DNA from: Arenicellales bacterium
Lineage (GTDB): Bacteria > Pseudomonadota > Gammaproteobacteria > Arenicellales > JAJDZL01
Direction: 5' to 3'
DNA: 64,000 nt
Assembly (NCBI GenBank): GCA_965220725.1
Contig: OZ244840.1
Span: 2,304,548 to 2,368,547 of the forward strand
A program made the position numbers and the translations under genes. This document shows positions 5,005-24,370 of this stretch, piece after piece. Under the pieces are notes generated by a model. It was given only the letters and a program-made list of their open reading frames with translations. It was not told the origin of the DNA and made no database searches. Numbering within the stretch: position 1 is the stretch's first letter; each line of letters starts with the position of its first letter.

Positions 5005-5008
5005 TTGA

Positions 5009-6947: not shown

Positions 6948-7667
6948 TCAACTCCACGCTGCCCGCGGCTCTTCCACCAGTCTGAGTGCCAGCCGTACGG
7001 CATCAACTGCATCCTTGCCCCAACCATCGGCTCCGCATTCGTCCGCCCATTCCTGTGTTGTCGGCGCACCGCCGATCAGGATCTTCACCTTGTCGCGATC
7101 GCCGGCATTCTGAAACTCCTCGATCGTCACCTTCTGGTAGTACACGGTAGTCGAGAGCAAAGCCGAAAATCCGACCAGGTCGGCGTTCTCCTCGCGGGCG
7201 GTCTGTATGAATTTATCCGGATGCACGTCTGTTCCCAGGTTGATGACCCGGAAGCCTGCGTTTTCGAGCATGATGGTTACGATCGATTGTCCGATGTCAT
7301 GCATGTCACCGAGCACGGTTCCAATCACGAACGTACCGACGGGTTTTTCCGCCATGGCTGCCAGCAAGGGGCGGATCAGGGCGAGCCCCGCCTTCATGGC
7401 CCGGGCGGTGATCAGCATTTCCGGGATGAAAATGACCTGGGCGCTGAATCGGTCAGCCTGCAGGTTGAATCCCGGGAACAGTCCGTCATCGAGAATCACT
7501 CTCGGATCAATATCCGCATCAATCGCCTGCTGAACACGGGCATCGGTGTAGACGTGGTCACCGTTTTCCACTGCATCCCAGAGTGTTTCCCATTCCCAAT
7601 TTTCGGGTGCGCGTCCTTCCCATCCCTCGGGAATAACCAGGACCGGATCTTCAATTTCTTCAAACAT
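6948..7667 (-). CDS. Corrinoid (cobalamin)-binding protein: B12-binding cap plus Rossmann-like B12 domain.
   Basis: DxHxxG motif in GTVLGDMHDIGQSIV, followed by LGTDV and SALLSTT. This is typical of MtaC/MtbC/MetH B12 domains. Confidence 0.85.
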   Translation of the reverse strand: MFEEIEDPVLVIPEGWEGRAPENWEWETLWDAVENGDHVYTDARVQQAIDADIDPRVILDDGLFPGFNLQADRFSAQVIFIPEMLITARAMKAGLALIRPLLAAMAEKPVGTFVIGTVLGDMHDIGQSIVTIMLENAGFRVINLGTDVHPDKFIQTAREENADLVGFSALLSTTVYYQKVTIEEFQNAGDRDKVKILIGGAPTTQEWADECGADGWGKDAVDAVRLALRLVEEPRAAWS

Positions 7668-7681
7668 GTCTCAATCGTCAA

Positions 7682-8851
7682 CTAATTCAATGGATATTTG
7701 CCGTAGGTGCCGAAGTCGCGTTGCGCTTCAAGCATCGTGAAGATGTTCTGGATCGGGACGTCGGCGAGAATGTAATGGGATGGCGAAAAGATATAGCCAC
7801 CGCCGGTGGCCAGGTTCTTCATAACCTCACACACACCGTTTCGCACGTCCTCCACCTGTCCCCTGGGGAGCAGACGCTGGACATCGAAACCTCCGATGAA
7901 CGCAATGTCATCACCGTACTTCTGCTTGAGTTCCTTTTGATGCTTGTTGCCGCCTGTTGGCTGCATCAGACCGGACAGGTCAACACCGAGTTCAATCATG
8001 TCCCCGATGATGGGGGAATAATCACCACAGGAGTGGAGCTTGATGTAGATGTCCGGGTTGGACTTGCGGAACTCCTTGAACATATAGTCAAACCGGGGCT
8101 TGCCTAATTCCCGCCACTGTTCAGGTGAGATCATCATTGACTGCTGTGCACCGACATCATCACCAACCCGGATCATGTCGACACCGAGATCGATGACATT
8201 CTTGCCCAGCTGGGTATAGTATTCCGTCAGTCCGTCCAGCACTCCCTTGATCAACTCAGGCTGGTCGAACAGCATCAGGAAGAAGTTCTGGGTACCGACG
8301 ATATGGGCGTAGGCCGCCTCGATCAGTGTTGACGACAAGTCAACAATGATGAAATAATCCTTCTGATACTCCTCAAGCAGTCTCTTGATGGGTTCTAGCA
8401 GTTCCGGATCAGCCGGGTCGGGCCAGGTGTAATTTTTAAGTTCCTCCATCGAGGTGATCGGGTGATGGTTGGGGAAGTTTTCCGGCACAACCTTTGCCGG
8501 CCCCCAGAACTCCTGGGTTTTCGCAAACACCTCGTGTTCCTCTTCGGTCCGGCCCTTGAGTCCGCTCTTTCCATAGCCGACGCCAAAATGGTTGAACCAG
8601 GTCTCGCCGATTGCGATTGGGCGATGGGAGAACTGGGCGTTGATACCGATCTGATAGATGATGGCATCATTGCCGAGTCGCAATTCCAGTTCGGGATTGT
8701 GTTTCATGCCGGTACCGGTTTTGGTGATGCCGTAAACCCGTGCAATCTTTTCCTTGGCTTCACTTTTCATTCGGTACAGCAGTGGTACCCGGTCAACCTT
8801 TTCATGTCGAATAGCCCGGGCAAAGCGATCGCGTGGCAGTAATTCCTTCAT
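7682..8851 (-). CDS. URO-D (uroporphyrinogen decarboxylase)/MtaA-CmuA-family methyltransferase, the putative substrate-side methyltransferase.
   Basis: Full-length URO-D-like pattern: RFARAIRHEKVDRVPL at the N-terminus, DDVGAQQSMMISPEQW, KLHSCGD, and GGYIFSPSH near the C-terminus. It carries an H-x-C ... C arrangement (LHSCGD, with a Cys in NGVCEV 66 residues later). Confidence 0.75.
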   Translation of the reverse strand: MKELLPRDRFARAIRHEKVDRVPLLYRMKSEAKEKIARVYGITKTGTGMKHNPELELRLGNDAIIYQIGINAQFSHRPIAIGETWFNHFGVGYGKSGLKGRTEEEHEVFAKTQEFWGPAKVVPENFPNHHPITSMEELKNYTWPDPADPELLEPIKRLLEEYQKDYFIIVDLSSTLIEAAYAHIVGTQNFFLMLFDQPELIKGVLDGLTEYYTQLGKNVIDLGVDMIRVGDDVGAQQSMMISPEQWRELGKPRFDYMFKEFRKSNPDIYIKLHSCGDYSPIIGDMIELGVDLSGLMQPTGGNKHQKELKQKYGDDIAFIGGFDVQRLLPRGQVEDVRNGVCEVMKNLATGGGYIFSPSHYILADVPIQNIFTMLEAQRDFGTYGKYPLN

Positions 8852-8938
8852 CTTTGTTCGCCTCTCGTTAAATTGGTTCGTGGTGTATTCGGTTCATCTG
8901 TCAAATATAGTTGATTTGGTCGTAAGTTGGCCAACGGA

Positions 8939-9940
8939 CTATTTCGACACCCGTCTGGCTGGCTTGTTCAGCGCACGGATGTACCTGAGATACTTGACGG
9001 AATACTCATCCCGTGCGGTCAGGGAATTTGCCGCAAACAGGAAATCGTTGAACGGTTTGACCTGATTCATGATGGGATCGATCATCAACGAGTCACAGCC
9101 GGCGAGAATCGCCAGCGTCACAAAGGCATGATTGAGAATCTTGCGCTGCGGCAATCCGAATGATACGTTGCTGTGACCGCCGAAGATGTGAACAGCCGGG
9201 TAGCGCGTCCTGAGTTCGCGTACTGCATCAAGGTAGTGATTGCCAAAGTCCGGTCCTGCGCCAATGGGAAAGACCAGCGGATCCAGGAACCGGTCTTCCA
9301 TGGGAATGCCGCCGGCATCCATCATCTGCATGCACTGCTCGAGATTGTTGACACGCTCTTCGGCATCCTGTGGCATGCCGCGGTTGCCGCTGGCATTGGC
9401 GAACAGGATTGCATTCTTTTCGCGTGCCATGTCCACCAGCACCTGGCGGCCGTCTTCGAGATTGAATGAGTTGATCGCCGGGCGGCTGATCGTGCCGTCA
9501 TGGGCTTCCAGTCCGGCATAGATGGTGTTGGAATCGGAGGAATCAATCGACACCACCGACGAGGTGATGGACTGGGCGGTTCTGACCAGCCACTTCATCC
9601 ATTCATAGCGCTCCTCGGGGTAGACTGACATCTCATCCACACAAAGATCAATGATGTGTGCGCCATTGGCTTCCTGCGACTTGATCGCCCAGTTGATGTA
9701 TTCCATGTCCTTTTGACGGCAGGCTTCCGCGATATGCGGAATGGCAAAAATCTTCTGCTCGTTGGGATCTTCGGGTATGGATGGGGTGACGTCGAGCCGC
9801 CCGGTTGTACCGTCGAGTTTGGCATAGGCAATGAACCACTTGTCGTCCTCGCGGACAACACGCGGACTCGAGGCCTTGATTCTCCTCGTGGCATTGAAGT
9901 TTTCGCCAATGATGACGAGACCGTCATTTTTCACTTTCAT
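8939..9940 (-). CDS. Pterin-binding (MeTr/MetH pterin domain, DHPS-like) methyltetrahydrofolate:corrinoid methyltransferase.
   Basis: The N-terminus LVIIGENFNATRRIK resembles the IGERxNxTG start of pterin-binding TIM barrels. Its size and its position next to a corrinoid protein fit this call. Confidence 0.7.
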   Translation of the reverse strand: MKVKNDGLVIIGENFNATRRIKASSPRVVREDDKWFIAYAKLDGTTGRLDVTPSIPEDPNEQKIFAIPHIAEACRQKDMEYINWAIKSQEANGAHIIDLCVDEMSVYPEERYEWMKWLVRTAQSITSSVVSIDSSDSNTIYAGLEAHDGTISRPAINSFNLEDGRQVLVDMAREKNAILFANASGNRGMPQDAEERVNNLEQCMQMMDAGGIPMEDRFLDPLVFPIGAGPDFGNHYLDAVRELRTRYPAVHIFGGHSNVSFGLPQRKILNHAFVTLAILAGCDSLMIDPIMNQVKPFNDFLFAANSLTARDEYSVKYLRYIRALNKPARRVSK

Positions 9941-9961
9941 GTTGGGGACTCAATGATGCGA

Positions 9962-10630
9962 TCAGGTTCTCGGGATCAGTCCGAACAGACCGGAGCGTGA
10001 CATCTTGGGGAGCATGGCTGAACTCTCCAGTAGCCTGACTGGAATCCCGGTGTCCCCGAACGAGGCGAACAATGGTTGTTGATCATGCAGTTCCCACTGT
10101 ATCTGCCGGCCTTCAACGGGATAGGAGTAACCCGGCCCCAGTCGACGGGAGATCCGGGCATTGTGCTGCGTCGCCCACTTGCGCACGATCAGCACAAATT
10201 GCTTGGTTGCATCCTCCACTCCCAGCCAGGCGGCGGACTCCAAAAACAGGGCTTCGACGAGTTTTTCCTGATCCATCCATTCTATTGTCTGCTTGTCAAT
10301 TCCCTCACCGACGGTCAGTGCGAAGACCACGACCTTTGTCGATTCACTCAAATACTGCTTGAATATCGGACTTTGCAGGAATACACCGTTTTCAAGCCTG
10401 AGTCCCATCGCGTCCACACTCTCAATGTCCACCAGTCGATAACTCACCACCGGTGCGGCATTGGCGACAAAAGCGCTGATCGCGGTCATTGCCGATTTTC
10501 GAATGACGGGCCGTACTTTATCGGGATCCTTGTATCCCTGAATTCGCAGTACCGCATCGAGTTTTGGCTCTGAAGTGTCCAAAACAATCGTTTCGGTCAC
10601 TCCGCAAACAAGACTCTTCATGTTCATCAA
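9962..10630 (-). CDS. Protein resembling the methionine synthase (MetH) activation/AdoMet-binding domain.
   Basis: The C-terminal pattern RLGPGYSYP...LFASFGDTGIPVRLLESSAMLPKMSRSGLFGL resembles the MetH activation-domain pattern (PGYP...LF...GI.LTES.AM.P..SVSG). The start is uncertain (TTG 10630, ATG 10627 or ATG 10621) and no SD is visible. Confidence 0.55.
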   Translation of the reverse strand: MMNMKSLVCGVTETIVLDTSEPKLDAVLRIQGYKDPDKVRPVIRKSAMTAISAFVANAAPVVSYRLVDIESVDAMGLRLENGVFLQSPIFKQYLSESTKVVVFALTVGEGIDKQTIEWMDQEKLVEALFLESAAWLGVEDATKQFVLIVRKWATQHNARISRRLGPGYSYPVEGRQIQWELHDQQPLFASFGDTGIPVRLLESSAMLPKMSRSGLFGLIPRT

Positions 10631-10719
10631 TATAATATATTACAAATATATCATTTAAATATTTTGAGTTACCTGAGTGAAACCGGAATCATCCGGCAGC
10701 CACCCAGCGTGTCTGATAT

Positions 10720-11610
10720 TCAGTCGCCGTCGTTCTCCAGGGGCAGTCTGGAAGCGACATAACGGTAGATACCGCCACCGATCAGCGCACCGATGATCGG
10801 TGCCAGTATGTATACGATAAACCAACCGCCGCGGGGGCCGGGAATTGCAATCCCGTCCCAGCCGGCGAAGTAGGCGATCAATCTGGGACCGAAGTCGCGG
10901 GCGGGATTCAGCCCCGCCTGGGTCAGGGGGGCGATGACTGAAATGATGGCGGCGACGCCCACACCGATGGCAACCGCCGCGCCCGCTGATTGCGGGCGTG
11001 CGTAATTACGGCCGTGGGTGACCACGGACACGATGAAGGCCAGCATTGCCGTGCCGACCAACTCTGCGACGAATCCGGTCTTGATGCTGACGATCTGGAA
11101 TGCCTCAGGCGTAGTCCCGAATATCGCCGGGTTTGGGAAATACTCGCCGTAAATCATGGCACTGAGCTGGCTGCCCTGTTCTCCGCGAACCAGTTCGTGC
11201 TGCTGTTCGAAACCCGCAATGGCGTTGGCGTACAGAAAATACAGGATCAGACCGGCAAATGCCGCACCTGCGACCTGTGCGGTCCAGTACGGAATCACTC
11301 TGCGCCAGGGAAAACCATCATACACGGCAACCACGCAGGTGATGGCGGGATTGATGTGTGCACCGGACAGCGAAGCCGCTGTGTAGATGCCCAGCGTCAC
11401 CGCGACGGACCACACCACCGCAACCTGCCACAAACCGACCTGCGCGCCGGAAATCACGGCTGCGTGCACCACGCCGATGCCAAAGAAAACCATGACAAAA
11501 GTACCGAGAAACTCACCAGTCAGGGCGTCGCGCAAGGGTGGCAGCTCGCCTTGCTGGTTTTTTGCCAATGGATGGTCCAGAAATCGAAACAGGTGCCGTG
11601 GTGATTTCAC
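10720..11610 (-). CDS. MIP-family channel (aquaporin / aquaglyceroporin-like).
   Basis: Two NPA boxes (GAHINPAIT and GLNPARDFGPR) and six hydrophobic segments. The listed ORF start (11796) overlaps the upstream metF-like gene, so I chose the in-frame GTG at 11610. A TTG at 11568 is an alternative. Confidence 0.85.
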   Translation of the reverse strand: MKSPRHLFRFLDHPLAKNQQGELPPLRDALTGEFLGTFVMVFFGIGVVHAAVISGAQVGLWQVAVVWSVAVTLGIYTAASLSGAHINPAITCVVAVYDGFPWRRVIPYWTAQVAGAAFAGLILYFLYANAIAGFEQQHELVRGEQGSQLSAMIYGEYFPNPAIFGTTPEAFQIVSIKTGFVAELVGTAMLAFIVSVVTHGRNYARPQSAGAAVAIGVGVAAIISVIAPLTQAGLNPARDFGPRLIAYFAGWDGIAIPGPRGGWFIVYILAPIIGALIGGGIYRYVASRLPLENDGD

Positions 11611-11650
11611 GTTCGATTTCCCGGGCACTGAAGAGCGAAATTGAGACTGC

Positions 11651-12535
11651 TCAGGCGGCGCTGATGTTTTGTTTGCCGATTTCGTGCACAATCCTTTGGA
11701 TCCAGTCCGCAGATTTACGCAGTCCGCCCAGCGGATAGATGTGCAACTTCTTGATTCTGGTTTCGGGGTTGCGTAATCGGTAGTCGACCAGATCATCGAG
11801 CAACCGCTGCGGATTATGGTTCATCAGCATTTTTGTGGCGTTGCGCGCCTGTTTCTTGAGGAACACCGCGGAGGCACCGATGCCACAGGCCTTTGCATGC
11901 TTGAGCAGCGTACCGACTGTGGCAACACCGGGTATGCCGATATGTAGGGGCAGGTCGATGCCCATCTGTGACAATCTTGCTTCCCAGGTGATGATGGGCT
12001 CGGCTTCAAAACAGAATTGGGTGATGATGTACATTGCGGCATCCGTGCGTTGTGCGAAGTCAAGCTTCCACCTCAACGCCGACTCGATCTGCTGATCGGA
12101 CATGTCCGGTGAGCCTTCAGGATGACCGGCAATGCCAATGGTTTGGATTCCCATTTTGTCGAACAATTCGGTTTCCAGCAACTGCATGGAGTTGTCAAAC
12201 TCACCAACCGGTTTCGGTGCGCCGCCGGCGAGTACCAGCACCTGCCTGCCGCCACAGCCATCGCGGAAACGGATCAGCGCATCCTCGAGTTTCTTGCGGT
12301 TTGGAATCTGACGGGCAACGATGTGTGGAATGGGAACGAACTGTTCGGACTTGAGGCGTTCACAGATGGTGAGTGTGTCGTCGATGGTTGATCCGGGCAG
12401 TGTGGTGACGTAGACCTGCGTGCCGGGCTCGATGATGTAGCGGTAGTCGGGAATCTTGGTCGCCGCGCCGGGTGTGGTTTCAACAGAATAGCCGTGCAGC
12501 AACTGCCGAAGTGCTGAAGAGTTCGGGTTGGACAA
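11651..12535 (-). CDS. metF: 5,10-methylenetetrahydrofolate reductase (MTHFR family).
   Basis: GHPEGSP, ITQFCFEAE and GIDLPLHIGIPG parallel E. coli MetF segments (YPEVHPE, ITQFFFD, GIDVEIIPGILP). Confidence 0.75.
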   Translation of the reverse strand: MSNPNSSALRQLLHGYSVETTPGAATKIPDYRYIIEPGTQVYVTTLPGSTIDDTLTICERLKSEQFVPIPHIVARQIPNRKKLEDALIRFRDGCGGRQVLVLAGGAPKPVGEFDNSMQLLETELFDKMGIQTIGIAGHPEGSPDMSDQQIESALRWKLDFAQRTDAAMYIITQFCFEAEPIITWEARLSQMGIDLPLHIGIPGVATVGTLLKHAKACGIGASAVFLKKQARNATKMLMNHNPQRLLDDLVDYRLRNPETRIKKLHIYPLGGLRKSADWIQRIVHEIGKQNISAA

Positions 12536-12585
12536 GAAAGGCTACCGACAAAAATGATCTTGACTTAAATCGATTCAGGCGTGTG

Positions 12586-13119
12586 TCACGCCCATTCAAA
12601 GTAAACGACGGCGTCGTGAAAGTCGTTGATCTCGGATTCACTGGACGAGAGAATACGGAAGCCCTGCCGGGTGCCACCCGGCCATTCGTTGTCGAGCATG
12701 ATACGGTTGCCGATCCAATGCTCGGCGAACTGATGTCCGATCAGCACATAAACCATTTCTGAATTGACTGCAATGCCATTGTTCGGTCCAAGCCGGGTAT
12801 TCATTGGGCGCGGTGTCTTCCAGTCTGCTATCACCTCGCAGGTCTCGGCATCCAGTGAGTCGGTGATGACAACCCGATGGATCGGCCAGGCGTATGAGTT
12901 GCCGGATACGGTAATGGTCTGGTTGGGCAGCGAGCAGGCGACTGCGAGCAGGAATTCTCCCTGGAAACTGAACTTTTCAGAAAACGCGGCTGGCGCGGTC
13001 ACTGCCGCACAGCCGTAATGTCCGTCTGCAACGCCGTCGGTAACTTCGGGTGGCGTCCAATTCAGATTCTTCAGAGCATGCCTGTCGAACTCAGGTACTG
13101 GAAATCGTTTCGCCCACAT
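12586..13119 (-). CDS. Hypothetical protein, first gene of the hypothetical / metF / MIP unit.
   Basis: A 177-aa ORF co-directional with metF and 50 nt upstream of it. Its composition is protein-like. I recognised no family. Confidence 0.5.
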   Translation of the reverse strand: MWAKRFPVPEFDRHALKNLNWTPPEVTDGVADGHYGCAAVTAPAAFSEKFSFQGEFLLAVACSLPNQTITVSGNSYAWPIHRVVITDSLDAETCEVIADWKTPRPMNTRLGPNNGIAVNSEMVYVLIGHQFAEHWIGNRIMLDNEWPGGTRQGFRILSSSESEINDFHDAVVYFEWA

Positions 13120-13459
13120 TGGAATTCAATCTCTGTCAGGGATACATGAATTTGGAGACATGGATTTTAAACCGTTTTGTCCAAATATGGCTTGCGGATT
13201 TAATCGGCCTGCCGTACCGGTCAGGGCGATCAGTTCACATCCATTCGATTTGCGTCCAAATTGACAATTCAACGTCAGTGTCTAAATATATACTAAATAT
13301 ATATGTGATGCCCGCATCGTTTTCTTGCCTGAAGGCGGTCGTTGTGCAAGCCAGATTGGCTGAATGGTAGAAAGAGAATACGCTGGAACATAAAATATTT
13401 CACGTGGCAGTAGATTACAGCTGCCATGTTTCCCGACATCATCAAAAAGGAGGCTCATC

Positions 13460-13750
13460 ATGGCGAAGGTGACCATATTGTATTGGCAGGATATCCCGTC
13501 GGTCGTTGAGGCCCGGGATGAGCAGGGTGTTCACAAGGAACTTCTCAGTGAGCGATTTCAGGAACTGATTGATCTGGTCGCAATGAAAAAGAAGCTGGCT
13601 GGAACCGATGAATACCTGATGCAGTGGTCGAAGGGCAAGCCCTACGAGGTTGATGGAACCGCGGTGGAAGCGGCAACGGCCGTCAGGGATGAATTCGAAG
13701 CCCGGTATAAGGAAATCAGAAAGTCAGAGTTGAACAAGGCCGTCGGCTAG
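13460..13750 (+). CDS. Small conserved protein. It possibly belongs to the family annotated 'virulence factor', which is often found beside B12/pterin methyltransferase genes.
   Basis: A strong SD (AAAGGAGG) lies 7 nt before the ATG. The N-terminus VTILYWQDIPSVVEAR resembles the YWRDIPAQV start I recall for that family. I could not verify this. Confidence 0.6.
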   Translation: MAKVTILYWQDIPSVVEARDEQGVHKELLSERFQELIDLVAMKKKLAGTDEYLMQWSKGKPYEVDGTAVEAATAVRDEFEARYKEIRKSELNKAVG

Positions 13751-13771
13751 CAGCACCGTTGCCCATTCAAT

Positions 13772-15037
13772 TCAAGTAGCAGTGACCAGCACTGCTCGAA
13801 AGTCGTTGACATTGGTCAGTGTGGGACCGGTCTCAGTCAGATCCCCCAGTTCCCTGAAGAAACCGTAGGAATCATTGTTCGAGAGGAACTGTTCAGGGTT
13901 CATGCCCTTTTGATGGGCTCTTTTCACCGTGGTTGGGTCCACTGTGGCGCCCGCGTTGGTTTCCGAGCCGTCGATGCCGTCGGTATCGCAGGCAATTGCG
14001 TAGATTTCCGGGCGTGCGCGAAGTTCAATCGCAAGGGCCAGGGCGAACTGGGTGTTCGGACCGCCTTTCCCGCTTCCGGTAACGGTTACCGTAGTCTCCC
14101 CGCTGGACAGGACAACAAAAGGTGTCTGGTGCCGGCGCTCAGCAATCAGCCTGTCAATAAACCGGGCATGGCGTCTGGCGGCGAGATTGGCGTCACCCGT
14201 AATGGGTTCGCTGATCACAAACGGCTCGCATCCTGACTCACGGGCGAGTTCGGCAGCCGCTGCCATTGCAGTTTCTGCCCTCGCGATGATGGTCGTGTCG
14301 GTAGTCTCGAAGATCCGGTCGCCGGGCTTGGGAGTTTCCAGTTCATTGGTCTGAAGCAGGTTCACGATGTGAGCAGGTACCGAAATTCCGTATTGTTTGA
14401 TGATTGACAGGACATCAGCGCAGGTGGATTGATCGGGAACTGTCGGACCGGAACCGATTGTCGAGGGATCGTCACCGACAACATCAGAAATGCAATAGGT
14501 GTGCGAGCAGGCCGGGTGGATCATTTGCTGCAAGCGTCCGCCTTTCACGGCTGACAGGTGCTTTCGAACGGTGTTGATCTGGTTGATGTCCGCCCCTCCC
14601 AACAGCAATTGTCGGGTGATGGCCTGTTTGTCTGCAAGACTGATCCTTGGGTGCGGCAGTGTCATCAGGGCGGAGGCACCACCCGACATCAGGCACATCA
14701 CAAAGTCACTGGATTCAAGGCTGCACAGCGAGTCGACGATTTTTCTGGCGGCTGAGATGCCCTGTTGATCCGGCACGGGATGAGCGGCCTCAAGCACTTC
14801 GATTCGGTCACATTCGACGCTGTGACCGTAGCGTGTGACGACGATACCCGACAATTGAGCGTCACAATGGTCTTCGACCACACGCGCCATTGCAGCCGCA
14901 GCCTTGCCGGCACCGATGACATGAATGCGCTTGTGTTTCATGTTTGCAATGTAAGGTGGCAGGCAGTGTTGGGCCGACGCAACATGTACGGCACGAAGAA
15001 ATAGACGCTCTAGAAATTCACGGGGATTGGCGATCAT
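13772..15037 (-). CDS. Glycerate 2-kinase / hydroxypyruvate reductase-like protein (MOFRL, TtuD/GckA family).
   Basis: VIGAGKAAAAMA, and SSGETTVTVTGSGKGGPNTQFALALA, which is typical of this family. Confidence 0.8.
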   Translation of the reverse strand: MIANPREFLERLFLRAVHVASAQHCLPPYIANMKHKRIHVIGAGKAAAAMARVVEDHCDAQLSGIVVTRYGHSVECDRIEVLEAAHPVPDQQGISAARKIVDSLCSLESSDFVMCLMSGGASALMTLPHPRISLADKQAITRQLLLGGADINQINTVRKHLSAVKGGRLQQMIHPACSHTYCISDVVGDDPSTIGSGPTVPDQSTCADVLSIIKQYGISVPAHIVNLLQTNELETPKPGDRIFETTDTTIIARAETAMAAAAELARESGCEPFVISEPITGDANLAARRHARFIDRLIAERRHQTPFVVLSSGETTVTVTGSGKGGPNTQFALALAIELRARPEIYAIACDTDGIDGSETNAGATVDPTTVKRAHQKGMNPEQFLSNNDSYGFFRELGDLTETGPTLTNVNDFRAVLVTAT

Positions 15038-15129
15038 GCCTGGCTAGCGCGACTAAACATATAGCATTGGGAAGATAGTTTGGTTAGAATTAAAATTATC
15101 ATCATGAAGTTCAACATGAGTAACAGGAA

Positions 15130-16128
15130 ATGACGAATGCGATTGAAACAGTAGTAGTATTTGGAGCAGGTGTTTCAAAGAGAATCGTGAATTTTCCCAC
15201 ATTTGATAATTTGATCCACGAATTGAAATCGGAGCGCGTGGCGACAGAGAATAAAACGCTCCGAGACTGCATATTGAGTTACGAAACGGAAAAACACAAA
15301 AACTTCGACTTATACCTAGTGAATAGCATAAATCACCTAAACGATAGCACAATAATTTCCGAATACATGGAATTAATCTCTGACAAATTCTTCACAAATT
15401 TGGAAGACTCAACCACAAGTGCAATCCTATCTAAGTCCAAATGGTTGTCGGAAACTTTACGCAGGCCAAAGAGAGTCTTAGTGACTACAAACTATGATCC
15501 GTTATTGAACATATTAGTCTATTGTGAAATGTATCAAGAATTGAAACATCGTGTCCAGACGGACGGTAGCCATCATTTTGAGTCACTCATTGAAGACTTC
15601 GAAGTTGGAAACAACGCCAAGCCTCATGAATTTGTGGATTGGTTCTTTAGTTTATTGTTACAAGAAGCATATAAGCAGGTCTGTAGTTTCCAGGACCTCA
15701 AGCAACACAATTCAATGTCTGAGCGGATTTTCTATTTGCATGGGCATTGTTACAAGCGTGAGTCAACCTACAAGTTAATCGGAGAATTTGAAACCGTCCA
15801 GAACGAGACACGAAATAGGTCTGCAACTCTGACAGGTGAAACCACGAGGCACAAAGTATATGAGAATTTGCAAAAGTTGCTCGCAACTAGTGAGATTTTT
15901 CGGGTAATTGTAGTTGGAATGAGTAAAGAAACTTGCAAGTATGTAATACAGCACGCAAATTTATCCGCAGAGAAATTAATCTATGGTTATCACGAAGATT
16001 CCTTGATTGAGGCTGATGACCGAGTAGAATTGAATAGTTATTTACAGTCTGAGTTCCAAGAAAGATTTTTGAAGATTGAAACTGATGGAAACCAGACTAT
16101 CATGGAAATGCTACGTGATGAAGAGTAA
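15130..16128 (+). CDS. Stand-alone SIR2-like (SIR2_2 type) protein in an AT-rich islet. It is a candidate NAD+-consuming defence effector.
   Basis: VVVFGAGVSKRIVNFPTFDNL (GAGxS), VLVTTNYDPLLN (TTNYD motif), IFYLHGHC (LHG) and FRVIVVGMS (a GYS-like tail). Hand counts give local G+C of about 33-37% (lines 15361 and 15601), versus about 55% in the flanking line 14101. Confidence 0.65.
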   Translation: MTNAIETVVVFGAGVSKRIVNFPTFDNLIHELKSERVATENKTLRDCILSYETEKHKNFDLYLVNSINHLNDSTIISEYMELISDKFFTNLEDSTTSAILSKSKWLSETLRRPKRVLVTTNYDPLLNILVYCEMYQELKHRVQTDGSHHFESLIEDFEVGNNAKPHEFVDWFFSLLLQEAYKQVCSFQDLKQHNSMSERIFYLHGHCYKRESTYKLIGEFETVQNETRNRSATLTGETTRHKVYENLQKLLATSEIFRVIVVGMSKETCKYVIQHANLSAEKLIYGYHEDSLIEADDRVELNSYLQSEFQERFLKIETDGNQTIMEMLRDEE

Positions 16129-16425
16129 AAATATTGGTTCCGAAATCCAGCGTAATGAGTTTGATTTTTGCAGAGGGGAACTAAGTGGATGCGGTACTCT
16201 TTGGGCAGACTCGGAAACAAGCGTTATTCTACTTTCCAAAATATTATCGTGGTAACACAGCAACAAAATCTGTTTCAAGTAAATTCACAGTACTCGTACC
16301 AATATAATCATTATCGACATGCGCCTTTAGTCAGAATGCGCAGTTGGTAATTCTATTGGTGAATCGAAATTTAGACTGCTTTTCTTCCTGAAACAATTGA
16401 AACTACAAGAGGCGTTGGAATACGT

Positions 16426-18213
16426 ATGTCAGATTATCTCGCACCATTGACCGATATGAAGTTCGTCCTGAGTCATGTGGCCGGTTTGGGGGAGATCATG
16501 AATCTCGAATCATTTCAAGGCATGGACGACGAGCTGGTTTCCGCGATTCTGGAGGAATCATCAAAATTTACATCGGAAATCCTGGGCCCGTTGAATCGGG
16601 TCGGTGATGAGCACGGGGCGAAAGTCTCAGACGGTGAGGTGACGACCGCACCGGGATGGAAGGAGGCGTATCAGCAGTTCATCGAGAGTGGCTGGAACGG
16701 ATTGTCATTTAAGCCCGAATATGGCGGGCAGGGGTTGCCGTGGCTGGTGGCGACTGCGGTTCAGGAGATGTGGCATTCGGCCAATATGTCATTCGGCCTG
16801 TGTCCGCTTCTGACCCAGGGTGCGATCCGGGCACTCGAACTGCATGGGTCGCCTGAGCAGCAGGAGACCTACATGGCGCGCCTGGTTTCTGGCGAGTGGG
16901 CCGGCACCATGAATCTGACCGAGGCGCATGCCGGGTCGGACCTGGCGGCGATTCGCACCCGCGCAGTCGAGGAAGGCGACCACTACCGATTGAAAGGTCA
17001 GAAAATCTTCATTACCTATGGAGAACACGACCTGACCGAGAACATCATTCATTTCGTACTGGGCCGATGCTCGGATTCCCCGGAAGGCGTCAAGGGCATC
17101 TCACTTTTCATCGTGCCGAAGTTTCTGGTCAATGATGACGGCACGCTTGGTGAACGCAACGATCTTCGCTGTGTCTCGCTTGAGCACAAGCTGGGCATTC
17201 ATGCAAGCCCAACCGCTGTGATGTCCTATGGTGACCAGGACGGCGCGGTGGCCTACCTGGTCGGCGAAAAGAACAAGGGGCTTGAGTACATGTTCACCAT
17301 GATGAATCTCGCCCGTCATGCCGTCGGTGTCGAGGGGCTGGCGATTGCGGAACGTGCGTATCAGCAGGCGCGGGGCTACGCCGCCGAGCGCGTTCAGGGC
17401 AGCGTGGTTGGCGGCCCGAAAGAGCGGGTGCCAATCATCCGGCATCCGGATGTGAGACGAATGCTGATGACCATGAAGTCACTGATCCAGGCCATGCGCT
17501 GTCTGTCTTACTATACCTCCGGCATATTTGACCTGTCACATGCCCATCCGGACCAGGCCGCCCGATCTGAATTCGCAGCGGATCTCGGCTTGCTGATTCC
17601 CATTGTGAAAGGGTGGTGCGCTGAAATGGGCAATGAAGTGGCCTATATCGGTGTCCAGGTGCACGGTGGCATGGGATTTATCGAAGAAACCGGTGCCGCT
17701 CAGCATCTTCGCGATGCGCGTATCACACCGATCTACGAAGGCACCACGGGTATCCAGGCCAACGATCTTGTCGGTCGCAAGATTCTGCGCGATCCAGACG
17801 CCCACGTCGACCGGTTCGTTGGAAGAATTCGGGAATCACTGGCTGAACTGCGGACGCAGGCTGATTCGAATGTGGAGATCTGTCAGTCCGTGGAGTCGGC
17901 ACTCAACGATCTTGAACGGGTGACCGACTGGGTTCGGCAAACAGGCGCAAGCGATGCCCGGCTGCCAGCCGCCTCCAGCGTGGGTTACATGCATGTGCTG
18001 GCATTGACAGTCGCAGGTTGGCTGATGGCGGTTTCTGCAACCCAATCAGCTGTGTTACGGAATTCAGCCGACGGTGATCAGGATTTTCTCGAAGCCAGGC
18101 AGACGACTGCGGCATTTTTCGCAACCCACATCATGCCGCGGGTCAAGGCTCATGCGGATGGCGTCGTGAATTCGTCCGCCGCGGTGATGGCGTTGCGCGA
18201 CGATCAGTTCTAG
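16426..18213 (+). CDS. Large (~595 aa) acyl-CoA dehydrogenase, of the DmdC/FadE-like long form.
   Basis: The N-terminus MSDYLAPLTDMKFVL is typical of the long ACAD N-terminal domain. Also present are IYEGTTGIQANDLVGRK and HGGMGFIEE. Confidence 0.85.
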   Translation: MSDYLAPLTDMKFVLSHVAGLGEIMNLESFQGMDDELVSAILEESSKFTSEILGPLNRVGDEHGAKVSDGEVTTAPGWKEAYQQFIESGWNGLSFKPEYGGQGLPWLVATAVQEMWHSANMSFGLCPLLTQGAIRALELHGSPEQQETYMARLVSGEWAGTMNLTEAHAGSDLAAIRTRAVEEGDHYRLKGQKIFITYGEHDLTENIIHFVLGRCSDSPEGVKGISLFIVPKFLVNDDGTLGERNDLRCVSLEHKLGIHASPTAVMSYGDQDGAVAYLVGEKNKGLEYMFTMMNLARHAVGVEGLAIAERAYQQARGYAAERVQGSVVGGPKERVPIIRHPDVRRMLMTMKSLIQAMRCLSYYTSGIFDLSHAHPDQAARSEFAADLGLLIPIVKGWCAEMGNEVAYIGVQVHGGMGFIEETGAAQHLRDARITPIYEGTTGIQANDLVGRKILRDPDAHVDRFVGRIRESLAELRTQADSNVEICQSVESALNDLERVTDWVRQTGASDARLPAASSVGYMHVLALTVAGWLMAVSATQSAVLRNSADGDQDFLEARQTTAAFFATHIMPRVKAHADGVVNSSAAVMALRDDQF

Positions 18214-18224
18214 ACGTGAATTGA

Positions 18225-18563
18225 TCAGGCGAGTTTGAGTCCGTTATCAACGGGGCGTTCTGGCTGAGCCAGCACAACGGAGCCATCTTTCTGCGTGAAT
18301 CCCGTGAGCAGGAACTGGGACATGATCGGACCGATCTGTTTCGGTGGGAAATTCACCACACCGATGATATGGCGGCCCAAGAGATCCTCGGGTGTGTAGA
18401 GATCGGTGATCTGCGCGCTGCATCGGCGAATTCCGATCTCCTCTCCGAAGTCCGCCGTGACCTTGTAGGCTGGTTTTCTGGCTTCAGGAAATTCCTCTAC
18501 GTCAACGATGGTGCCTGTGCGCAGTTCCACCTGCTCGAAATCATTCCATTCGATTTGCTTCAC
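18225..18563 (-). CDS. tRNA-binding domain protein (CsaA/YgjH-like).
   Basis: [32 protein letters not shown]...[11 protein letters not shown] is typical of the EMAP/CsaA OB-fold. Confidence 0.8.
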
Positions 18564-18840
18564 GATGGTGCCTCTTGTCTGAATTCAATCTGGTTGTTCA
18601 AGGATTCCGGGTTAGCAACCTGTTGCCAGGTTTGCCCGGATGATGATTGGTTGAAAAAATCGAGTGGAATTATACGAAGCCGGTGACAGGGTTCGACAGG
18701 AAATTCAACCCGAATCCAATCACATTTTCTGTTGCCGGGCGCGTGGGTTCTGACGTTGAATTCCGACCTGTCAATTTTCAGCATATGAGCAAAATCAAAC
18801 TTATAATTGTGCGCTCATTGCAATTCAACGGTGAGTCTGT

Positions 18841-20265
18841 ATGTCGTTAACGGATGAGCAAATTTTGGCCGATATCAACAATCTGGTCAGCAGATCGCGT
18901 CAGGCGATGGCTTCGCTCAAGTCAGCCAGTCAGCAGCGTGTCGATGAGATTGTCACGGCAATCGCATGGGCGATTTACGAGGACGGCAACGCGGCGGAAC
19001 TTGCCAATATGGCCGTTGCCGATACCGGTCTGGGCAATGCCAAAGACAAGATCACCAAGAACAAACGCAAGACGTTTGGAACACTGCGGGATTTGATGCG
19101 CGTCCGAACCGTCGGAATCATCGAGGAGGATCCGGCAAAAGGACTCATCAAGTATGCGAAACCGGTTGGCGTGGTGGCCGCAGTCACACCCTCGACCAAT
19201 CCTGCCGCCACACCCGCCAACAAATGCATGATGGCGGTCAAATGTCGAAACAGTGTCATTGTCGCACCCTCACCGGCGGGTTGGAATACCACCAACCGAA
19301 CCGTCGAACTGATGCGGGAGCAGTTGGAACGGGTTGGCGCACCAGCCGACCTGGTGCAGATTCTCCCTGCGCCAGTCAGTCGCAAGGCAACCGAAGCCCT
19401 GATGAAGGCTGCAGACATGGTTGTGGTCACCGGTTCCCAAAACAATGTGCGAGGTGCCTACACGAGCGGCACTCCGGCGATTGGCGTCGGTGTCGGCAAC
19501 GTGCCTGTGATTATCGATGACAGCGCGGATCTGGCAAGTGCGGCGCAGCGGGTCCGGATGTCAAAGACCTTTGACAATGGCACATCCTGTTCGTCTGAGA
19601 ACTCCGTGGTCATTCTTGATTCAGTTTATGACGACATGATGCAAGCCTTTCGCAATGAGGGAGGGTATGTTGCCACCGCTTCGGAAAAATCAGACATTCA
19701 GCGTTTGCTGTGGTCGTCGGACGGTGTCATGAACCGGGAACTGATTGCCAAGGACGCGGACGTGCTGGTGCGGCAATTCGGGTTGAATGCCTCGGAAGCC
19801 GAGACCCGATTCATCATTGTCGAGGAAACCGGTATCGGGCCGGAGTATCCGCTATCCGGTGAAAAGCTCTCATTGGTGTTGACGGCCTACCGTGCGCAGG
19901 ATTTTGAGGATGCCAAGAATAAGGTGCGGGATATTCTCAACTACCAGGGCGCAGGTCATTCCTGTGGCATCCACACGTCGGATCCGGACAAGCCAAGAGT
20001 ACTGGCCGAGGAGTTGGATGTGGTCCGGGTGTTGGTCAACCAGGCACACACCTTCGGCAACGGCGGTGGGTTTACCAGTGGTTTGAACTTCACCCTGAGC
20101 ATGGGGTGCGGCACCTGGGGCGGAAACAGTATCAGTGAAAATCTGAATTACCGTCATTTTCTCAACATCACCCATCTATCGACTGAGATTCCCGAAGACA
20201 AACCGAGCGAGGAGAGTCTTTTCGGTGAATTTCTAAGGAATCACCACCCAGACCGAAACCTCTGA
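18841..20265 (+). CDS. CoA-acylating aldehyde dehydrogenase (EutE/PduP/SucD/SauS-like).
   Basis: VVAAVTPSTNPAATPANK and the catalytic-Cys region FDNGTSCSSENSVV. Confidence 0.8.
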   Translation: MSLTDEQILADINNLVSRSRQAMASLKSASQQRVDEIVTAIAWAIYEDGNAAELANMAVADTGLGNAKDKITKNKRKTFGTLRDLMRVRTVGIIEEDPAKGLIKYAKPVGVVAAVTPSTNPAATPANKCMMAVKCRNSVIVAPSPAGWNTTNRTVELMREQLERVGAPADLVQILPAPVSRKATEALMKAADMVVVTGSQNNVRGAYTSGTPAIGVGVGNVPVIIDDSADLASAAQRVRMSKTFDNGTSCSSENSVVILDSVYDDMMQAFRNEGGYVATASEKSDIQRLLWSSDGVMNRELIAKDADVLVRQFGLNASEAETRFIIVEETGIGPEYPLSGEKLSLVLTAYRAQDFEDAKNKVRDILNYQGAGHSCGIHTSDPDKPRVLAEELDVVRVLVNQAHTFGNGGGFTSGLNFTLSMGCGTWGGNSISENLNYRHFLNITHLSTEIPEDKPSEESLFGEFLRNHHPDRNL

Positions 20266-20275
20266 GGATCCGGCA

Positions 20276-21820
20276 GTGGCTGACACGATTCGATCTCTCA
20301 TCAACCGTTGTGCACGCGAACTCAAGTCGCGCGAATTCCTGGTTGACCCGGAGAGCAATCTTCACATGACGTATGGTGCCCTGCACGCCCATTGCCGGGA
20401 GTTCGGCGGATTTCTCCACAGCGCCGGTTTTTCCGCACCAGCCAATGTCGGTTTCATGATGGATAACGGCTATTGGTCTTCGGTCGTGTTCCTGGGAACC
20501 ATGTATTCAGGGCATATTTCCATCCCCCTGAATGTCGTGGCCAGTCGGCGCAATCTGCTGTTCGCCCTGGCGAATGCCAAGGTTGATATCGTTTTCGTCA
20601 GCGCGCCATACCGGGCGATGCTGAATGATCTTCTGACCGAGATCGACAGGGAGGTTCAGGTCGTTGATGTGGATATGGCAAGCGGTTTTGAGATGCCCGC
20701 TGTTGATTCGGCGGACCGGCCCTATCGGGCGCTTTCGGTCATGCCGAACTCTCCCGCGATGATCATGCATACATCGGGGACGGTTGGATTGCCCAAAGGT
20801 GCGGTGCTGAGGCACTCCAACATGATTGCAGGCGCCCACAACGTCAAGAAAGCCCATCAACTTTCCCTGGACGATGCAGCCTACTGTGTGTTGCCGCTTT
20901 ATCACATCAATGGACAGGTTGTCACGTTGATTGCTCCGATCGTCAGTCACTCGCGCGTGGTCATGCCGAGGAGATTCAGTGTCTCGAATTATTGGGAGCA
21001 TGTGATTCGCTACAACTGCACATGGGTGAGTCTGGTGCCGACCATGGCGAAATATCTGCTCGACGCGGTTGGCAACAGCAACGAAAAGAAGGCGCAGATC
21101 AGGGAACAGCTGAGACATCTCAGGTTTGCCCGTTCAGCCTCTTCATCATTGCCCGCGGGGATGCACCGGGACTTTGAGGAAACCTTTGGGGTCCCGATGA
21201 TTGAGACCATGGGTCTGACCGAGACTGCAGCACCCATTCTTGCCAATCCCATGCCACCGGCTCTCAGGGTATCAGGCTCTGTCGGTTTGCCATGCGGCAA
21301 TGAAGTGAAAGTGATCGATGCCGATGAGATAACACTGAGAGAAGGTGAGATCGGTGAGATCGTGGTGCGCGGCGACAATGTCATCTCGGAGTACTTCAAT
21401 GCGCCCCAGGCCACATTGACCTCGTTCACCTCCGATGGCTGGTTCAAAACCGGCGATCTTGGCTACTACGACGAGTATGGGTATTTCTTTGTGACCGGCC
21501 GCATCAAGGAACTGATCATCAAGGGAGGCGAGAACATCTCACCGCGTGAAATCGACGATGTGCTCTATCACCATGATGCCGTGCTTGAAGCCGGCGCGTT
21601 CGGCTTTCCTGATGATGCCTATGGTCAGGTTGTCGCGGTTGCTGTCGTTCTCAAGGAAGGAGTGGATATTTCTGAAGACGCGCTGATCGAATTTTGCAGT
21701 CAGGAGCTCGGAAGTTTCAGGTGTCCGAGTAGAATCTTCTTCGTCGATGATCTGCCGAAAGGGCCTTCGGGGAAAATCCAGAGACTGGAAGTCGCCAAGC
21801 TGATCATCGAGAATCAGTAA
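20276..21820 (+). CDS. AMP-dependent acyl-CoA synthetase/ligase.
   Basis: AMP-binding motif IMHTSGTVGLPKGAVL, plus GDLGYYDEYGYFFVTGRIKELI and a C-terminal PKGPSGKIQR. It has a GTG start 10 nt after the upstream stop. Confidence 0.85.
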   Translation: MADTIRSLINRCARELKSREFLVDPESNLHMTYGALHAHCREFGGFLHSAGFSAPANVGFMMDNGYWSSVVFLGTMYSGHISIPLNVVASRRNLLFALANAKVDIVFVSAPYRAMLNDLLTEIDREVQVVDVDMASGFEMPAVDSADRPYRALSVMPNSPAMIMHTSGTVGLPKGAVLRHSNMIAGAHNVKKAHQLSLDDAAYCVLPLYHINGQVVTLIAPIVSHSRVVMPRRFSVSNYWEHVIRYNCTWVSLVPTMAKYLLDAVGNSNEKKAQIREQLRHLRFARSASSSLPAGMHRDFEETFGVPMIETMGLTETAAPILANPMPPALRVSGSVGLPCGNEVKVIDADEITLREGEIGEIVVRGDNVISEYFNAPQATLTSFTSDGWFKTGDLGYYDEYGYFFVTGRIKELIIKGGENISPREIDDVLYHHDAVLEAGAFGFPDDAYGQVVAVAVVLKEGVDISEDALIEFCSQELGSFRCPSRIFFVDDLPKGPSGKIQRLEVAKLIIENQ

Positions 21821-22633
21821 TTGTCTTCCGGATTGACGAATCCGCAAAACACACTGGAAAAGCGCACTGCACTGATCACCGGTGCAACAAGTGGCATTGG
21901 ATTGACCATCGCGGAAAAGCTCGCCGCAAGTGGTTGTGATGTGTGTCTCAGTGGACTGGGTGATCCGGGTGCAATCCAACAGCTGCTGGATCAGATTCGC
22001 GACCGCGCCAATGTTCAAGCCGTCCATTGTCCGGCAGACCTTCGCGACCCGGATGCGGTCCACGATGCAGTGAAGGCGCTGATCGGTGAATTCGGCGGGA
22101 TTGATATTCTGATCAACAGTGCAGGTGTTCAGCATGTCGCCGCGGTTCAGGACTTTCCAAACGAAATTTGGGATGAGGTGCTTGCAGTCAACCTGTCGGC
22201 TGTGTTTCACACGATCAAGGCAGTCCTTCCGGGCATGGTCGGCAACGGCTGGGGGCGAATCATCAATATCGCCTCAACACATGGCCTGGTTGGCAGCGAG
22301 AATAAATCTGCCTATGTCGCGGCAAAGCATGGCGTGGTTGGGCTCACCAAAGTCGTGGCCCTTGAGAACGCGCGACATTCTGTCACCTGCAATGCCATCT
22401 GTCCGGGCTTTGTGGATACGCCACTGGTACGCGGGCAGATTCAGGACATTGCCGCTTCAGAGAGTCTGCCATTTGCGACCGCATCGGAGCGGTTTGTGTC
22501 CGGCAAACATCCCAGCGGGCAGTTTATCGGTACCGATGAAGTGGCCTCACTCGCACTTTATCTGTGTTCTGAACAGGCTGCCGGTATCACAGGTTCGGCG
22601 ATTGCGATTGACGGAGGTTGGACGGCACACTAG
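21821..22633 (+). CDS. SDR-family dehydrogenase, 3-hydroxybutyrate dehydrogenase-like.
   Basis: TGATSGIGLTIA, NSAG and SAYVAAKHGVVGLTK. The TTG start directly abuts the upstream stop. Confidence 0.8.
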   Translation: MSSGLTNPQNTLEKRTALITGATSGIGLTIAEKLAASGCDVCLSGLGDPGAIQQLLDQIRDRANVQAVHCPADLRDPDAVHDAVKALIGEFGGIDILINSAGVQHVAAVQDFPNEIWDEVLAVNLSAVFHTIKAVLPGMVGNGWGRIINIASTHGLVGSENKSAYVAAKHGVVGLTKVVALENARHSVTCNAICPGFVDTPLVRGQIQDIAASESLPFATASERFVSGKHPSGQFIGTDEVASLALYLCSEQAAGITGSAIAIDGGWTAH

Positions 22634-24159: not shown

Positions 24160-24370
24160 ACCCGCAACGCTCGCATTCGACTATCTCGACCTTGCCTGAT
24201 GCGCCGAATCCGAATTTGACTTCGATTACACGGTACTGGTGCACCCCGATTCGGCACAACAGGTTACCGATTTGTTTCGGAATATTCATTGCATGGTCTG
24301 CGTATTCGATACGCCCGCTACGTGGTCAGGACAACTGTTGCACTCCGTTCAGGTGATTTCCTTTCTCGCC

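Follow-up and report, generated by a model that had tools for sequence, protein, structure and literature searches.

The stretch of DNA studied here consists of 64,000 nucleotides of contig OZ244840.1 from an Arenicellales bacterium (positions 2,304,548 to 2,368,547 of the forward strand), and the whole of it is called the window below. Between a glycerate-kinase-type gene and an acyl-CoA dehydrogenase (ACAD) gene the window contains an AT-rich islet with a single gene, which encodes a 332-residue protein, P0001, with motifs of the SIR2_2 family. The islet is foreign in composition and is missing from a sister strain (L085), and the same kind of single-gene unit is found at a second locus in another genome. 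P0001 probably has a SIR2_2-type fold. The features of the locus are as follows.

13772-15037, minus strand: left flank, a glycerate-kinase-type core gene (DUF4147 and MOFRL), from open reading frame (ORF) and domain calls and the sister comparison.
15039-16403, no strand: AT-rich foreign segment of 1,365 bp, from its composition z-score and the lack of an L085 counterpart; it takes the place of a 236-bp glycerate kinase/ACAD intergenic region.
15067-15096, plus strand: sigma-70-like promoter candidate, TTGGGA-18-TAAAAT, from a consensus scan only (9 of 12 matches).
15130-16128 (stop included), plus strand: intact ORF of the 332-residue SIR2_2-like protein P0001, from the ORF list, homology to a second family member (P0002, see below) and a sub-threshold match to Pfam SIR2_2.
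16129-16403, no strand: 3' non-coding tail within the islet, 275 nt, without a terminator; it contains a promoter-like site at 16284-16311.
16404-16425, plus strand: retained native ACAD leader, 22 nt; the high-identity alignment to L085 restarts at 16404.
16426-18213, plus strand: right flank, the ACAD core gene, from ORF and domain calls.

Composition, boundaries and distribution of the islet

The G+C content of the islet (positions 15039-16403) is 0.382. In all other segments of the same size in the 64 kb it is 0.537 +/- 0.028, with a minimum of 0.451, which gives the islet a z-score of -5.6. When scanned in steps of 300 nt the islet lies at 0.37-0.40 and its flanks at 0.52-0.63. The SIR2-like gene itself has a G+C of 0.385, and its G+C at third codon positions is 0.43, against 0.62-0.68 in six neighbouring genes. 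A preliminary description, made from the sequence alone, had placed an AT-rich segment of about 1.4 kb between the two genes, and this is borne out. The contrast in composition that it drew also stands, but the 33-37% G+C that it gave from a hand count is slightly low. Likewise it located the islet correctly, at 15038-16425, while the ends are refined to those used here by the comparison with the sister strain.

That strain, L085 (a 484-kb contig), aligns to window positions 7297-15038 and 16404-26000 at 98.8-98.9% nucleotide identity and with identical gene order. Its gap between glycerate kinase and ACAD is 259 bp long and contains no gene, and 236 bp of it are unrelated to the islet. In three relatives at a greater distance (L003, L004 and L006) the site measures 131-302 bp and likewise has no gene. 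This agrees with the insertion supposed in the preliminary description: the gene is not conserved at the site in any of these four relatives, and its composition is unlike that of the core genome.

The parsimonious reading is that the islet is a strain-level replacement of the intergenic region, gained by the window lineage, because its composition is foreign and the gene is absent from all relatives compared. Formal proof of the direction is beyond reach, as the outgroup has diverged too far in its intergenic DNA. Import of the islet by homologous recombination was considered and set aside; there is no divergence gradient beside the junctions, and on this point too the outgroup intergenic DNA is uninformative.

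This intergenic site seems to be prone to gene gain. In the next-closest relative, the Arenicellales metagenome-assembled genome (MAG) L002 (OX638343.1), whose ACAD is 79% identical to that of the window, a different insert of 2.2 kb with host-like G+C is found at the same site (3802-6000). Judged by eye, its ORFs resemble a FAD-dependent monooxygenase (411 aa) and a SixA-type histidine phosphatase (186 aa).

The foreign DNA starts 1 nt past the start codon of the glycerate kinase and ends 22 nt short of the ATG of ACAD. Given these positions, the whole divergent promoter region, which corresponds to L085 7743-7978, has been overwritten. The glycerate kinase and ACAD genes must now use signals within the foreign DNA or read-through from the SIR2-like gene, the latter being possible because no terminator is found downstream of that gene. 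The promoter-like site at 16284-16311 could serve the ACAD gene. The SIR2-like gene itself has an AGGA at 15125-15128, immediately 5' of its ATG.

At the junctions there are neither direct nor inverted terminal repeats, nor any target-site duplication. The islet contains no transposase or integrase gene, and the number of tRNA genes in the 64-kb window is zero. Further, both the islet and the insert at the second locus substitute native DNA (236 bp and 53 bp, respectively) and are not simple interruptions, so neither qualifies as a mobile element.

A second family member at an independent locus

P0001 has one relative among about 15 billion public protein sequences. With phmmer, 1.84 billion cluster representatives were searched exhaustively, and this returned only P0002 (E = 5e-35), a protein of 353 aa that is 30-33% identical to P0001. 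In a pairwise comparison the two match with E = 6e-43, and BLASTP aligns them at 30% identity across 88% of the length. Among 5.8 billion protein clusters a word-indexed search recovered P0001 alone. No further members were detected by a profile search with the two sequences or by motif scans of metagenome and viral contigs. Using tblastn, nothing was found in phages and only chance matches in plasmids, inside intI1, a P-type ATPase and orc4. Both proteins are nameless in their source records.

P0002 is encoded in an insert of 1,873 bp in L082 (a 2.69-Mb contig, positions 9464-11336), with a G+C of 0.356, which replaces 53 bp. The sister genome L084, from the same sample, is 95-97% identical on both sides of the insert and does not have it; there the distance between a TetR/Rieske gene and a type II methyltransferase-endonuclease pair is just 140 bp. 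P0002 is the only ORF with any profile match in its insert, which has neither repeats nor a mobility gene. The hosts of P0001 and P0002 are related lineages, and the loci are different. Several of the proteins encoded near P0002 in L082 have counterparts of at least 90% identity in MAGs labelled Acidiferrobacterales.

Directly downstream of P0002 stands the type II restriction-modification (R-M) pair (PADLOC MTase_II 457 bits, REase_II 273 bits). It consists of an N6_N4 methyltransferase and a MvaI/BcnI-family endonuclease (L082 11361-13142, L084 8001-9784) and has a G+C of 0.44-0.46, compared with about 0.50 in the host. The pair is probably an older acquisition; only in one of the two genomes did the SIR2-like cassette land immediately upstream of it. 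Genes of the types AAA_14/DUF4143, SLFN_AlbA_2, HATPase_c_4 and RHH_1 are clustered at L082 1-2141, upstream of the P0002 locus. PADLOC weakly matches two of them to portions of pAgo or Aga SIR2-PNTD models, and the cluster may be another accessory or defence-like islet.

At both loci the exchanged unit is thus one gene with non-coding flanks and sharp boundaries. The preliminary description had seen no partner gene or extra domain at the window locus; this is confirmed, and strengthened by the two independent comparisons of presence and absence.

It had also suggested that an RNA from the flanking non-coding DNA might regulate the gene, and this idea does not survive a comparison of the two loci. 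The 3' tails are 275 nt long in the islet and 274 nt in the P0002 insert (L082 11063-11336), and in each case the insert stops 22-24 nt short of the ATG that follows. When the tails are anchored at the stop codon and compared without gaps, their identity is 0.328 against 0.263 +/- 0.028 (p about 0.011), a marginal and diffuse excess without any motif. The upstream non-coding parts differ in length, 91 nt for P0001 and 537 nt for P0002. The flanks of the two genes show no similarity by BLAST or tblastx, no common ORF and no Rfam match. Their folding energies are ordinary, with z-scores between -1.0 and +0.3, and the z-score of a global alignment is -0.46. A conserved RNA or small-ORF partner in the flanks was rejected on these grounds.

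SIR2_2-like features of P0001

ThsA, the type I Thoeris effector, represents the only family that permitted an empirical rank test here. The sequence of the ThsA SIR2 domain was checked against PDB 6LHX; 120 ThsA homologues were collected, 115 of which are in the domain hidden Markov model (HMM). The features of P0001 that can be placed on the DNA are listed below.

15163-15171, plus strand: codons of G12-A13-G14, the dinucleotide-binding GxG loop; identical in both family members, aligned to ThsA GAG 28-30 (hhalign, ThsA HMM) and preceded by a predicted strand at residues 7-11.
15484-15498, plus strand: codons of T119-T-N121-Y-D123, the xxNxD motif; TTNYDPLLN is invariant in both members and pairs with ThsA WTTNYD in every alignment.
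15499-15723, plus strand: predicted helical insertion, family-specific, at residues about 124-198 between the Asn/Asp and His motifs; from the motif spacing and from helices predicted at 124-183 with low confidence.
15736-15747, plus strand: codons of L203-H204-G205-H206, with His204 as candidate general base and putative equivalent of ThsA His152; RIFYLHGHC is invariant in both members and is paired with ThsA VVYKMHGD by E-INS-i.
15913-15924, plus strand: codons of V262-G-M-S265, a G[YFM]S-type motif; invariant in both members, preceded by a predicted strand at 258-262, at most 2 columns from ThsA FVGFSF (E-INS-i) and at the end of the Pfam match.

The four motifs reported in the preliminary description (GAGVS, TTNYD, LHG and VVGMS) are all found where it placed them in the single gene: GAG at residues 12-14 (GAGVS at 12-16), TTNYD at 119-123, LHGH at 203-206 and VGMS at 262-265. 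Two of them, GxG and xxNxD, are the motifs used in curating SIRim sequences (10.1101/2024.09.18.613514). Neither differs between P0001 and P0002, and in ThsA they are aligned with GAG and TTNYD; the HG dipeptide and the G-x-S motif are likewise invariant despite the 30% identity between the two proteins. P0001 has no CxxC zinc module, as is the case in SIR2_2 proteins (PMC12700824). No second domain is found in it, and its 332 residues leave no room for one.

The spacing of the motifs was measured from start to start. From GAG to TTNYD there are 107 aa in P0001, 111 in P0002 and 82 in ThsA; the HG motif, which is LHGH in the two family members and MHGD in ThsA, follows TTNYD after 84, 109 and 41 aa; and from the HG motif to VG[MF]S there are 59, 59 and 43. 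The additional 40-70 residues after the Asn/Asp motif are predicted, with low confidence, to be helical, and they vary between P0001 and P0002.

Several sequence comparisons point to a SIR2_2 protein. Pfam SIR2_2 (PF13289) matches residues 116-264 of P0001 (profile positions 2-91 of 141) with E = 1.5e-3 and 19.1 bits, below the gathering score of 24.5, and matches P0002 with 14.3 bits and E = 0.046. As decoys for the ThsA SIR2-domain HMM served 1,095 unrelated ORFs of 200 aa or more, drawn from the fetched loci; ranked among these, P0002 comes 1st and P0001 5th, at scores of 0.9-5 bits. In the reverse search only 5 of the 1,095 decoys reach the median score of ThsA. A profile-profile comparison with hhalign gives two collinear local matches, one at the TTNYD strand (P = 0.006) and one at the GAG loop (P = 0.02). 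Global hhalign failed, and the probability from hhalign with a single ThsA sequence was 2%.

The mutations N112A and H152A in ThsA abolish NAD+ cleavage (PMC7272460). On the alignment made with MAFFT E-INS-i, Asn121, Asp123 and His204 of P0001 are candidate equivalents of ThsA Asn112, Asp114 and His152. This alignment pairs RIFYLHGHC with VVYKMHGD, which is consistent with the span of the Pfam match; the default and L-INS-i modes of MAFFT give a different register.

We also predicted the structure of P0001 with AlphaFold2 (AF2), using the alignment of the two family members and no SIR2 input. The model has a predicted local distance difference test score (pLDDT) of 47 and a predicted template modelling score of 0.42. 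It has a strand before each motif, i.e. at residues 7-11 before GAG, 115-118 before TTNYD, 200-204 before HG and 258-262 before GMS, followed by a further strand at 283-286, in a Rossmann-like order. After the last strand this low-confidence model has a long C-terminal helix at 295-329. A Foldseek search of 350,542 PDB chains with it gives human FAM118B (9r0p_B) as the top match (E = 0.016, probability 0.96, template modelling scores (TM) 0.41 and 0.45). The second is the SIR2 subunit of E. coli SIR2-HerA (8suw_B, TM 0.42), and these two are the only whole-length matches. In a viral library the top match is a NAD-dependent deacylase (sirtuin) of Bodo saltans virus, with E = 0.042. A mixed alignment of ThsA and P0001 as AF2 input was dropped, as the default mode of MAFFT mis-registers the His motif and such an input would bias the model toward the answer.

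There are also a number of observations that speak against a SIR2_2 assignment. The Pfam score is below the gathering score, and searches of PADLOC, NCBIfam and PDB sequences gave nothing meaningful, so that no curated threshold is reached; neither did a search of PHROGs give anything meaningful. The best decoy in the reverse search (A1-HMM), a frame of intI1 with 9.4 bits, scores above every ThsA domain. After TTNYD the register is ambiguous, and MAFFT in its default mode pairs LHGH with ThsA FVGFS instead of MHGD, which would leave no catalytic His. Confidence in the AF2 models is low (pLDDT 43 from the single sequence and 47 from two), and every Foldseek E-value is above 0.01. The single-sequence model retrieves noise only (HIV integrase, TM 0.15). 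In addition, Foldseek also scores amino-acid identity, so its matches are not independent of the motifs.

With scores below the curated thresholds and a structure of low confidence, the assignment made in the preliminary description comes to rest on several weak lines that agree with each other. It is supported by the motifs, the candidate Asn and His residues, the HMM ranks and the fold matches, and weakened by a Pfam score below the gathering score, the empty PADLOC and NCBIfam searches and the low pLDDT. Taken together we consider a SIR2_2-type fold of P0001 to be probable, with quite high confidence.

Function of P0001 and alternative readings

At about 346 aa, AbiH is similar in size to P0001. 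It is a single-gene lactococcal abortive-infection protein with a predicted sirtuin-like fold and no other domain, and it counts among the SIRim proteins (PMC13064643; 10.1101/2024.09.18.613514). Like P0001 it stands alone as one gene; it is associated with mobile elements, and NAD+ depletion is presumed for it. By analogy P0001 would function most like AbiH, although no AbiH model in Pfam or PADLOC matches P0001 or P0002 at E <= 1. Another difference from AbiH is the loop of P0001, which is of the GAGxS type typical of SIR2_2.

The SIR2 domain of ThsA shares with P0001 the order of the motifs, strand-GAG, strand-TTNYD, strand-HG and strand-G[FM]S. Its Asn112 and His152 are essential for NADase activity (PMC7272460), and Asn121 and His204 of P0001 are at the proposed equivalent positions. 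However, the similarity is marginal, and the distance from Asn to His is 41 aa in ThsA but 84-109 aa in P0001 and P0002. ThsA also has a C-terminal SLOG sensor and a partner, ThsB, and P0001 has neither. None of the features by which Thoeris is recognised, a SLOG or Macro fusion and an adjacent TIR gene (ThsB), is present at the P0001 locus: the neighbours are glycerate kinase and ACAD, and PADLOC is empty.

In vertebrate FAM118B the resolved fold is, as proposed for P0001, a zinc-less sirtuin domain alone. The activity of FAM118B depends on self-assembly into filaments and not on a fused sensor, and it needs its paralogue FAM118A for strong activity (PMC12700824). There is no detectable sequence similarity to P0001, and the structural match rests on the model with pLDDT 47.

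SIR2-HerA (Nezha), DSR1 and DSR2, SPARSA SIR2-APAZ, Avs5 and KomC are SIR2_2-type NADase effectors of abortive infection, i.e. of the fold type proposed for P0001. KomC of Kongming (264 aa) consists of a SIR2 domain only (PMC13454610). These systems rely on a partner (HerA, pAgo, KomA/KomB) or on large fused sensors (DSR2, about 1,000 aa; the STAND NTPase of Avs5). In contrast, the P0001 and P0002 loci have no HerA, pAgo-APAZ or KomA/KomB gene, no fused sensor or STAND domain and no PADLOC model match. The preliminary description had taken it as established that SIR2 effectors are fused to or paired with a sensor. This holds for most of them but is incomplete, as AbiH and FAM118B are SIR2_2 proteins without another domain, and with these precedents the lack of a partner is less surprising.

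Our favoured reading is that the islet is a recently acquired single-gene cassette that encodes a very divergent zinc-less SIR2_2 ('SIRim') NADase and serves abortive infection. As a whole, we judge the chances of this reading to be about even. The bacterial SIR2_2 proteins characterised so far (ThsA, DSR1/2, SIR2-HerA, SPARSA, Avs5, KomC) are, in the literature consulted, NAD+-depleting effectors of abortive infection (PMC12700824), and it is by analogy to them that NADase chemistry, a part in defence and a way of activation are proposed for P0001. P0001 would be a SIR2-type Rossmann core alone, in which the GxG loop, Asn121/Asp123 and His204 are ordered as in a NAD+ pocket. In an uninfected cell it would be held inactive. 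A phage cue would then turn it on, most likely through changed self-association as in ThsA, FAM118B, Avs5 and SIR2-HerA; activation by a change in multimerisation, filaments included, is common among SIR2_2 effectors (PMC12700824). Regulation or sensing would most likely take place on the unusually long, family-specific helical insertion at about residues 124-198. The activated P0001 would cleave NAD+, and the infected cell would be arrested.

A minimal single-gene module for defence or abortive infection was one of the options in the preliminary description. It remains the best of these, and the gene is foreign and single; its function in defence is inferred. The R-M pair beside P0002 places one of the two copies in a defence context. 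Some points speak against a role in defence. The neighbours at the window locus are all metabolic genes and none is a defence gene. The R-M pair also occurs without P0002, in L084, so its adjacency is co-location with defence genes and not dependence. Finally, with two sequences only, purifying selection is not measurable.

One alternative is that P0001 is not a sirtuin at all, and instead a lineage-restricted ORFan of some other or new fold that resembles SIR2_2 in its motifs by chance. In its favour, every statistical measure is sub-threshold, the models are of low confidence, the intI1 decoy beats ThsA itself and the register is ambiguous. However, the weak signals converge and are collinear: Pfam matches both members, they rank 1st and 5th of the 1,095 decoys, and hhalign finds two matches. 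The three best whole-length fold matches, from two libraries, are all sirtuins, and the residues conserved at 30% identity are the SIR2_2 signature, each after a predicted strand. We hold a chance resemblance to be quite improbable. If the fold is accepted, the role could still be another than anti-phage NAD+ depletion, with P0001 acting on a specific target as an NAD+-dependent ADP-ribosyltransferase or deacylase, or as a toxin/addiction-type gene that mainly ensures its own retention. The chemistry of the sirtuin superfamily is indeed diverse and comprises deacylation, ADP-ribosylation and hydrolysis (PMC12700824), and the metabolic surroundings, the empty PADLOC search and the independence of the R-M pair are all in favour of such a role. 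Against it, P0001 is without the zinc module that canonical deacylases require (PMC12700824), and the bacterial SIR2_2 proteins so far characterised, within the literature consulted, function in immunity. Further, accessory defence cargo is typically what P0001 is, AT-rich, extremely rare and present or absent at strain level, and on balance a non-defence role seems unlikely.

There are two further alternatives. According to one of them P0001 is the decaying remnant or orphaned effector of a multi-gene system of the Thoeris, SIR2-HerA or pAgo type, and is inactive or depends on a factor in trans. Most characterised bacterial defence sirtuins that the literature consulted covers are fused to or paired with sensors, and 332 aa are too few for a separate sensor domain. 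Nevertheless, two independently placed, sharp-edged inserts each carry this gene alone, a strong point against the loss of a partner or the decay of a larger system, and the remnant proposed in the preliminary description is not supported. Both ORFs are also intact and of full length with the signature residues kept at 30% identity, no fragment of HerA, TIR, SLOG, pAgo or APAZ was detected in either insert or its flanks, and P0001 has no ligand-binding domain to receive a signal made elsewhere. A remnant or orphaned effector is very unlikely. The other alternative is an arrangement like a toxin-antitoxin pair, with the enzyme restrained by a small ORF or RNA located in the non-coding flanks. 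The nearly equal tails (275 and 274 nt) and their marginal, diffuse excess of identity would fit such a pair, but the flanks share neither similarity by BLAST or tblastx nor an ORF nor an Rfam match, their folding and alignment z-scores are ordinary and the upstream lengths are far apart, which makes it hardly probable at all.

A more far-reaching version of our favoured reading, and as a whole a doubtful one, can be outlined. P0001 would be a self-sufficient immune sirtuin of 39 kDa that combines sensing, regulation and NAD+ killing in one SIR2 domain, with a helical insertion of 80-110 aa as phage sensor or assembly switch. The gene with a length-constrained tail of about 275 nt would form a travelling unit of about 1.4-1.9 kb, which overwrites promoter-bearing intergenic regions between core genes without a recombinase of its own and is confined to one marine gammaproteobacterial (Arenicellales-like) lineage.

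We file P0001 as an extremely rare stand-alone SIR2_2-type effector outside any named system. What stands out is how rare the family is, how cleanly the gene is present or absent at strain level at two loci and that intergenic DNA is replaced wholesale without a recombinase. If active, P0001 would be among the smallest self-contained SIR2-type immune effectors and, having no sequence relationship to AbiH, would represent a second such lineage. How NADase effectors without a sensor are kept silent would be easier to explain with a self-regulating SIR2 domain, and this question bears on the human FAM118 proteins too. P0001 also illustrates a shortfall of profile libraries: it escapes the Pfam thresholds, PADLOC and NCBIfam, and presence/absence together with motif conservation still yields a testable hypothesis. 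Further, the overwriting of divergent promoters of core metabolic genes bears on how accessory genes may rewire the expression of their neighbours.

Some other parts of the window can be mentioned. An ORF of 312 aa at 45790-46728, 30 kb from the islet, matches Transposase_31 (the YhgA/Rpn-like PD-(D/E)XK family of recombination-promoting nucleases) and is the only mobility-related gene noticed in the parts of the window that were scanned. On the minus strand at 12586-13119 there is an ORF of 177 aa without a Pfam match, which has counterparts of 62-69% identity in L002 and L006. Between it and a 96-aa gene of the Virulence_fact family lies an intergenic region of 340 bp (13100-13450) that is AT-rich, with a G+C of 0.42-0.45. 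The second-lowest G+C zone of the window (0.45-0.49), at 40090-43877, contains an SbcD/SbcC-like pair of Metallophos (392 aa) and SMC_N/AAA_27 (870 aa) proteins.

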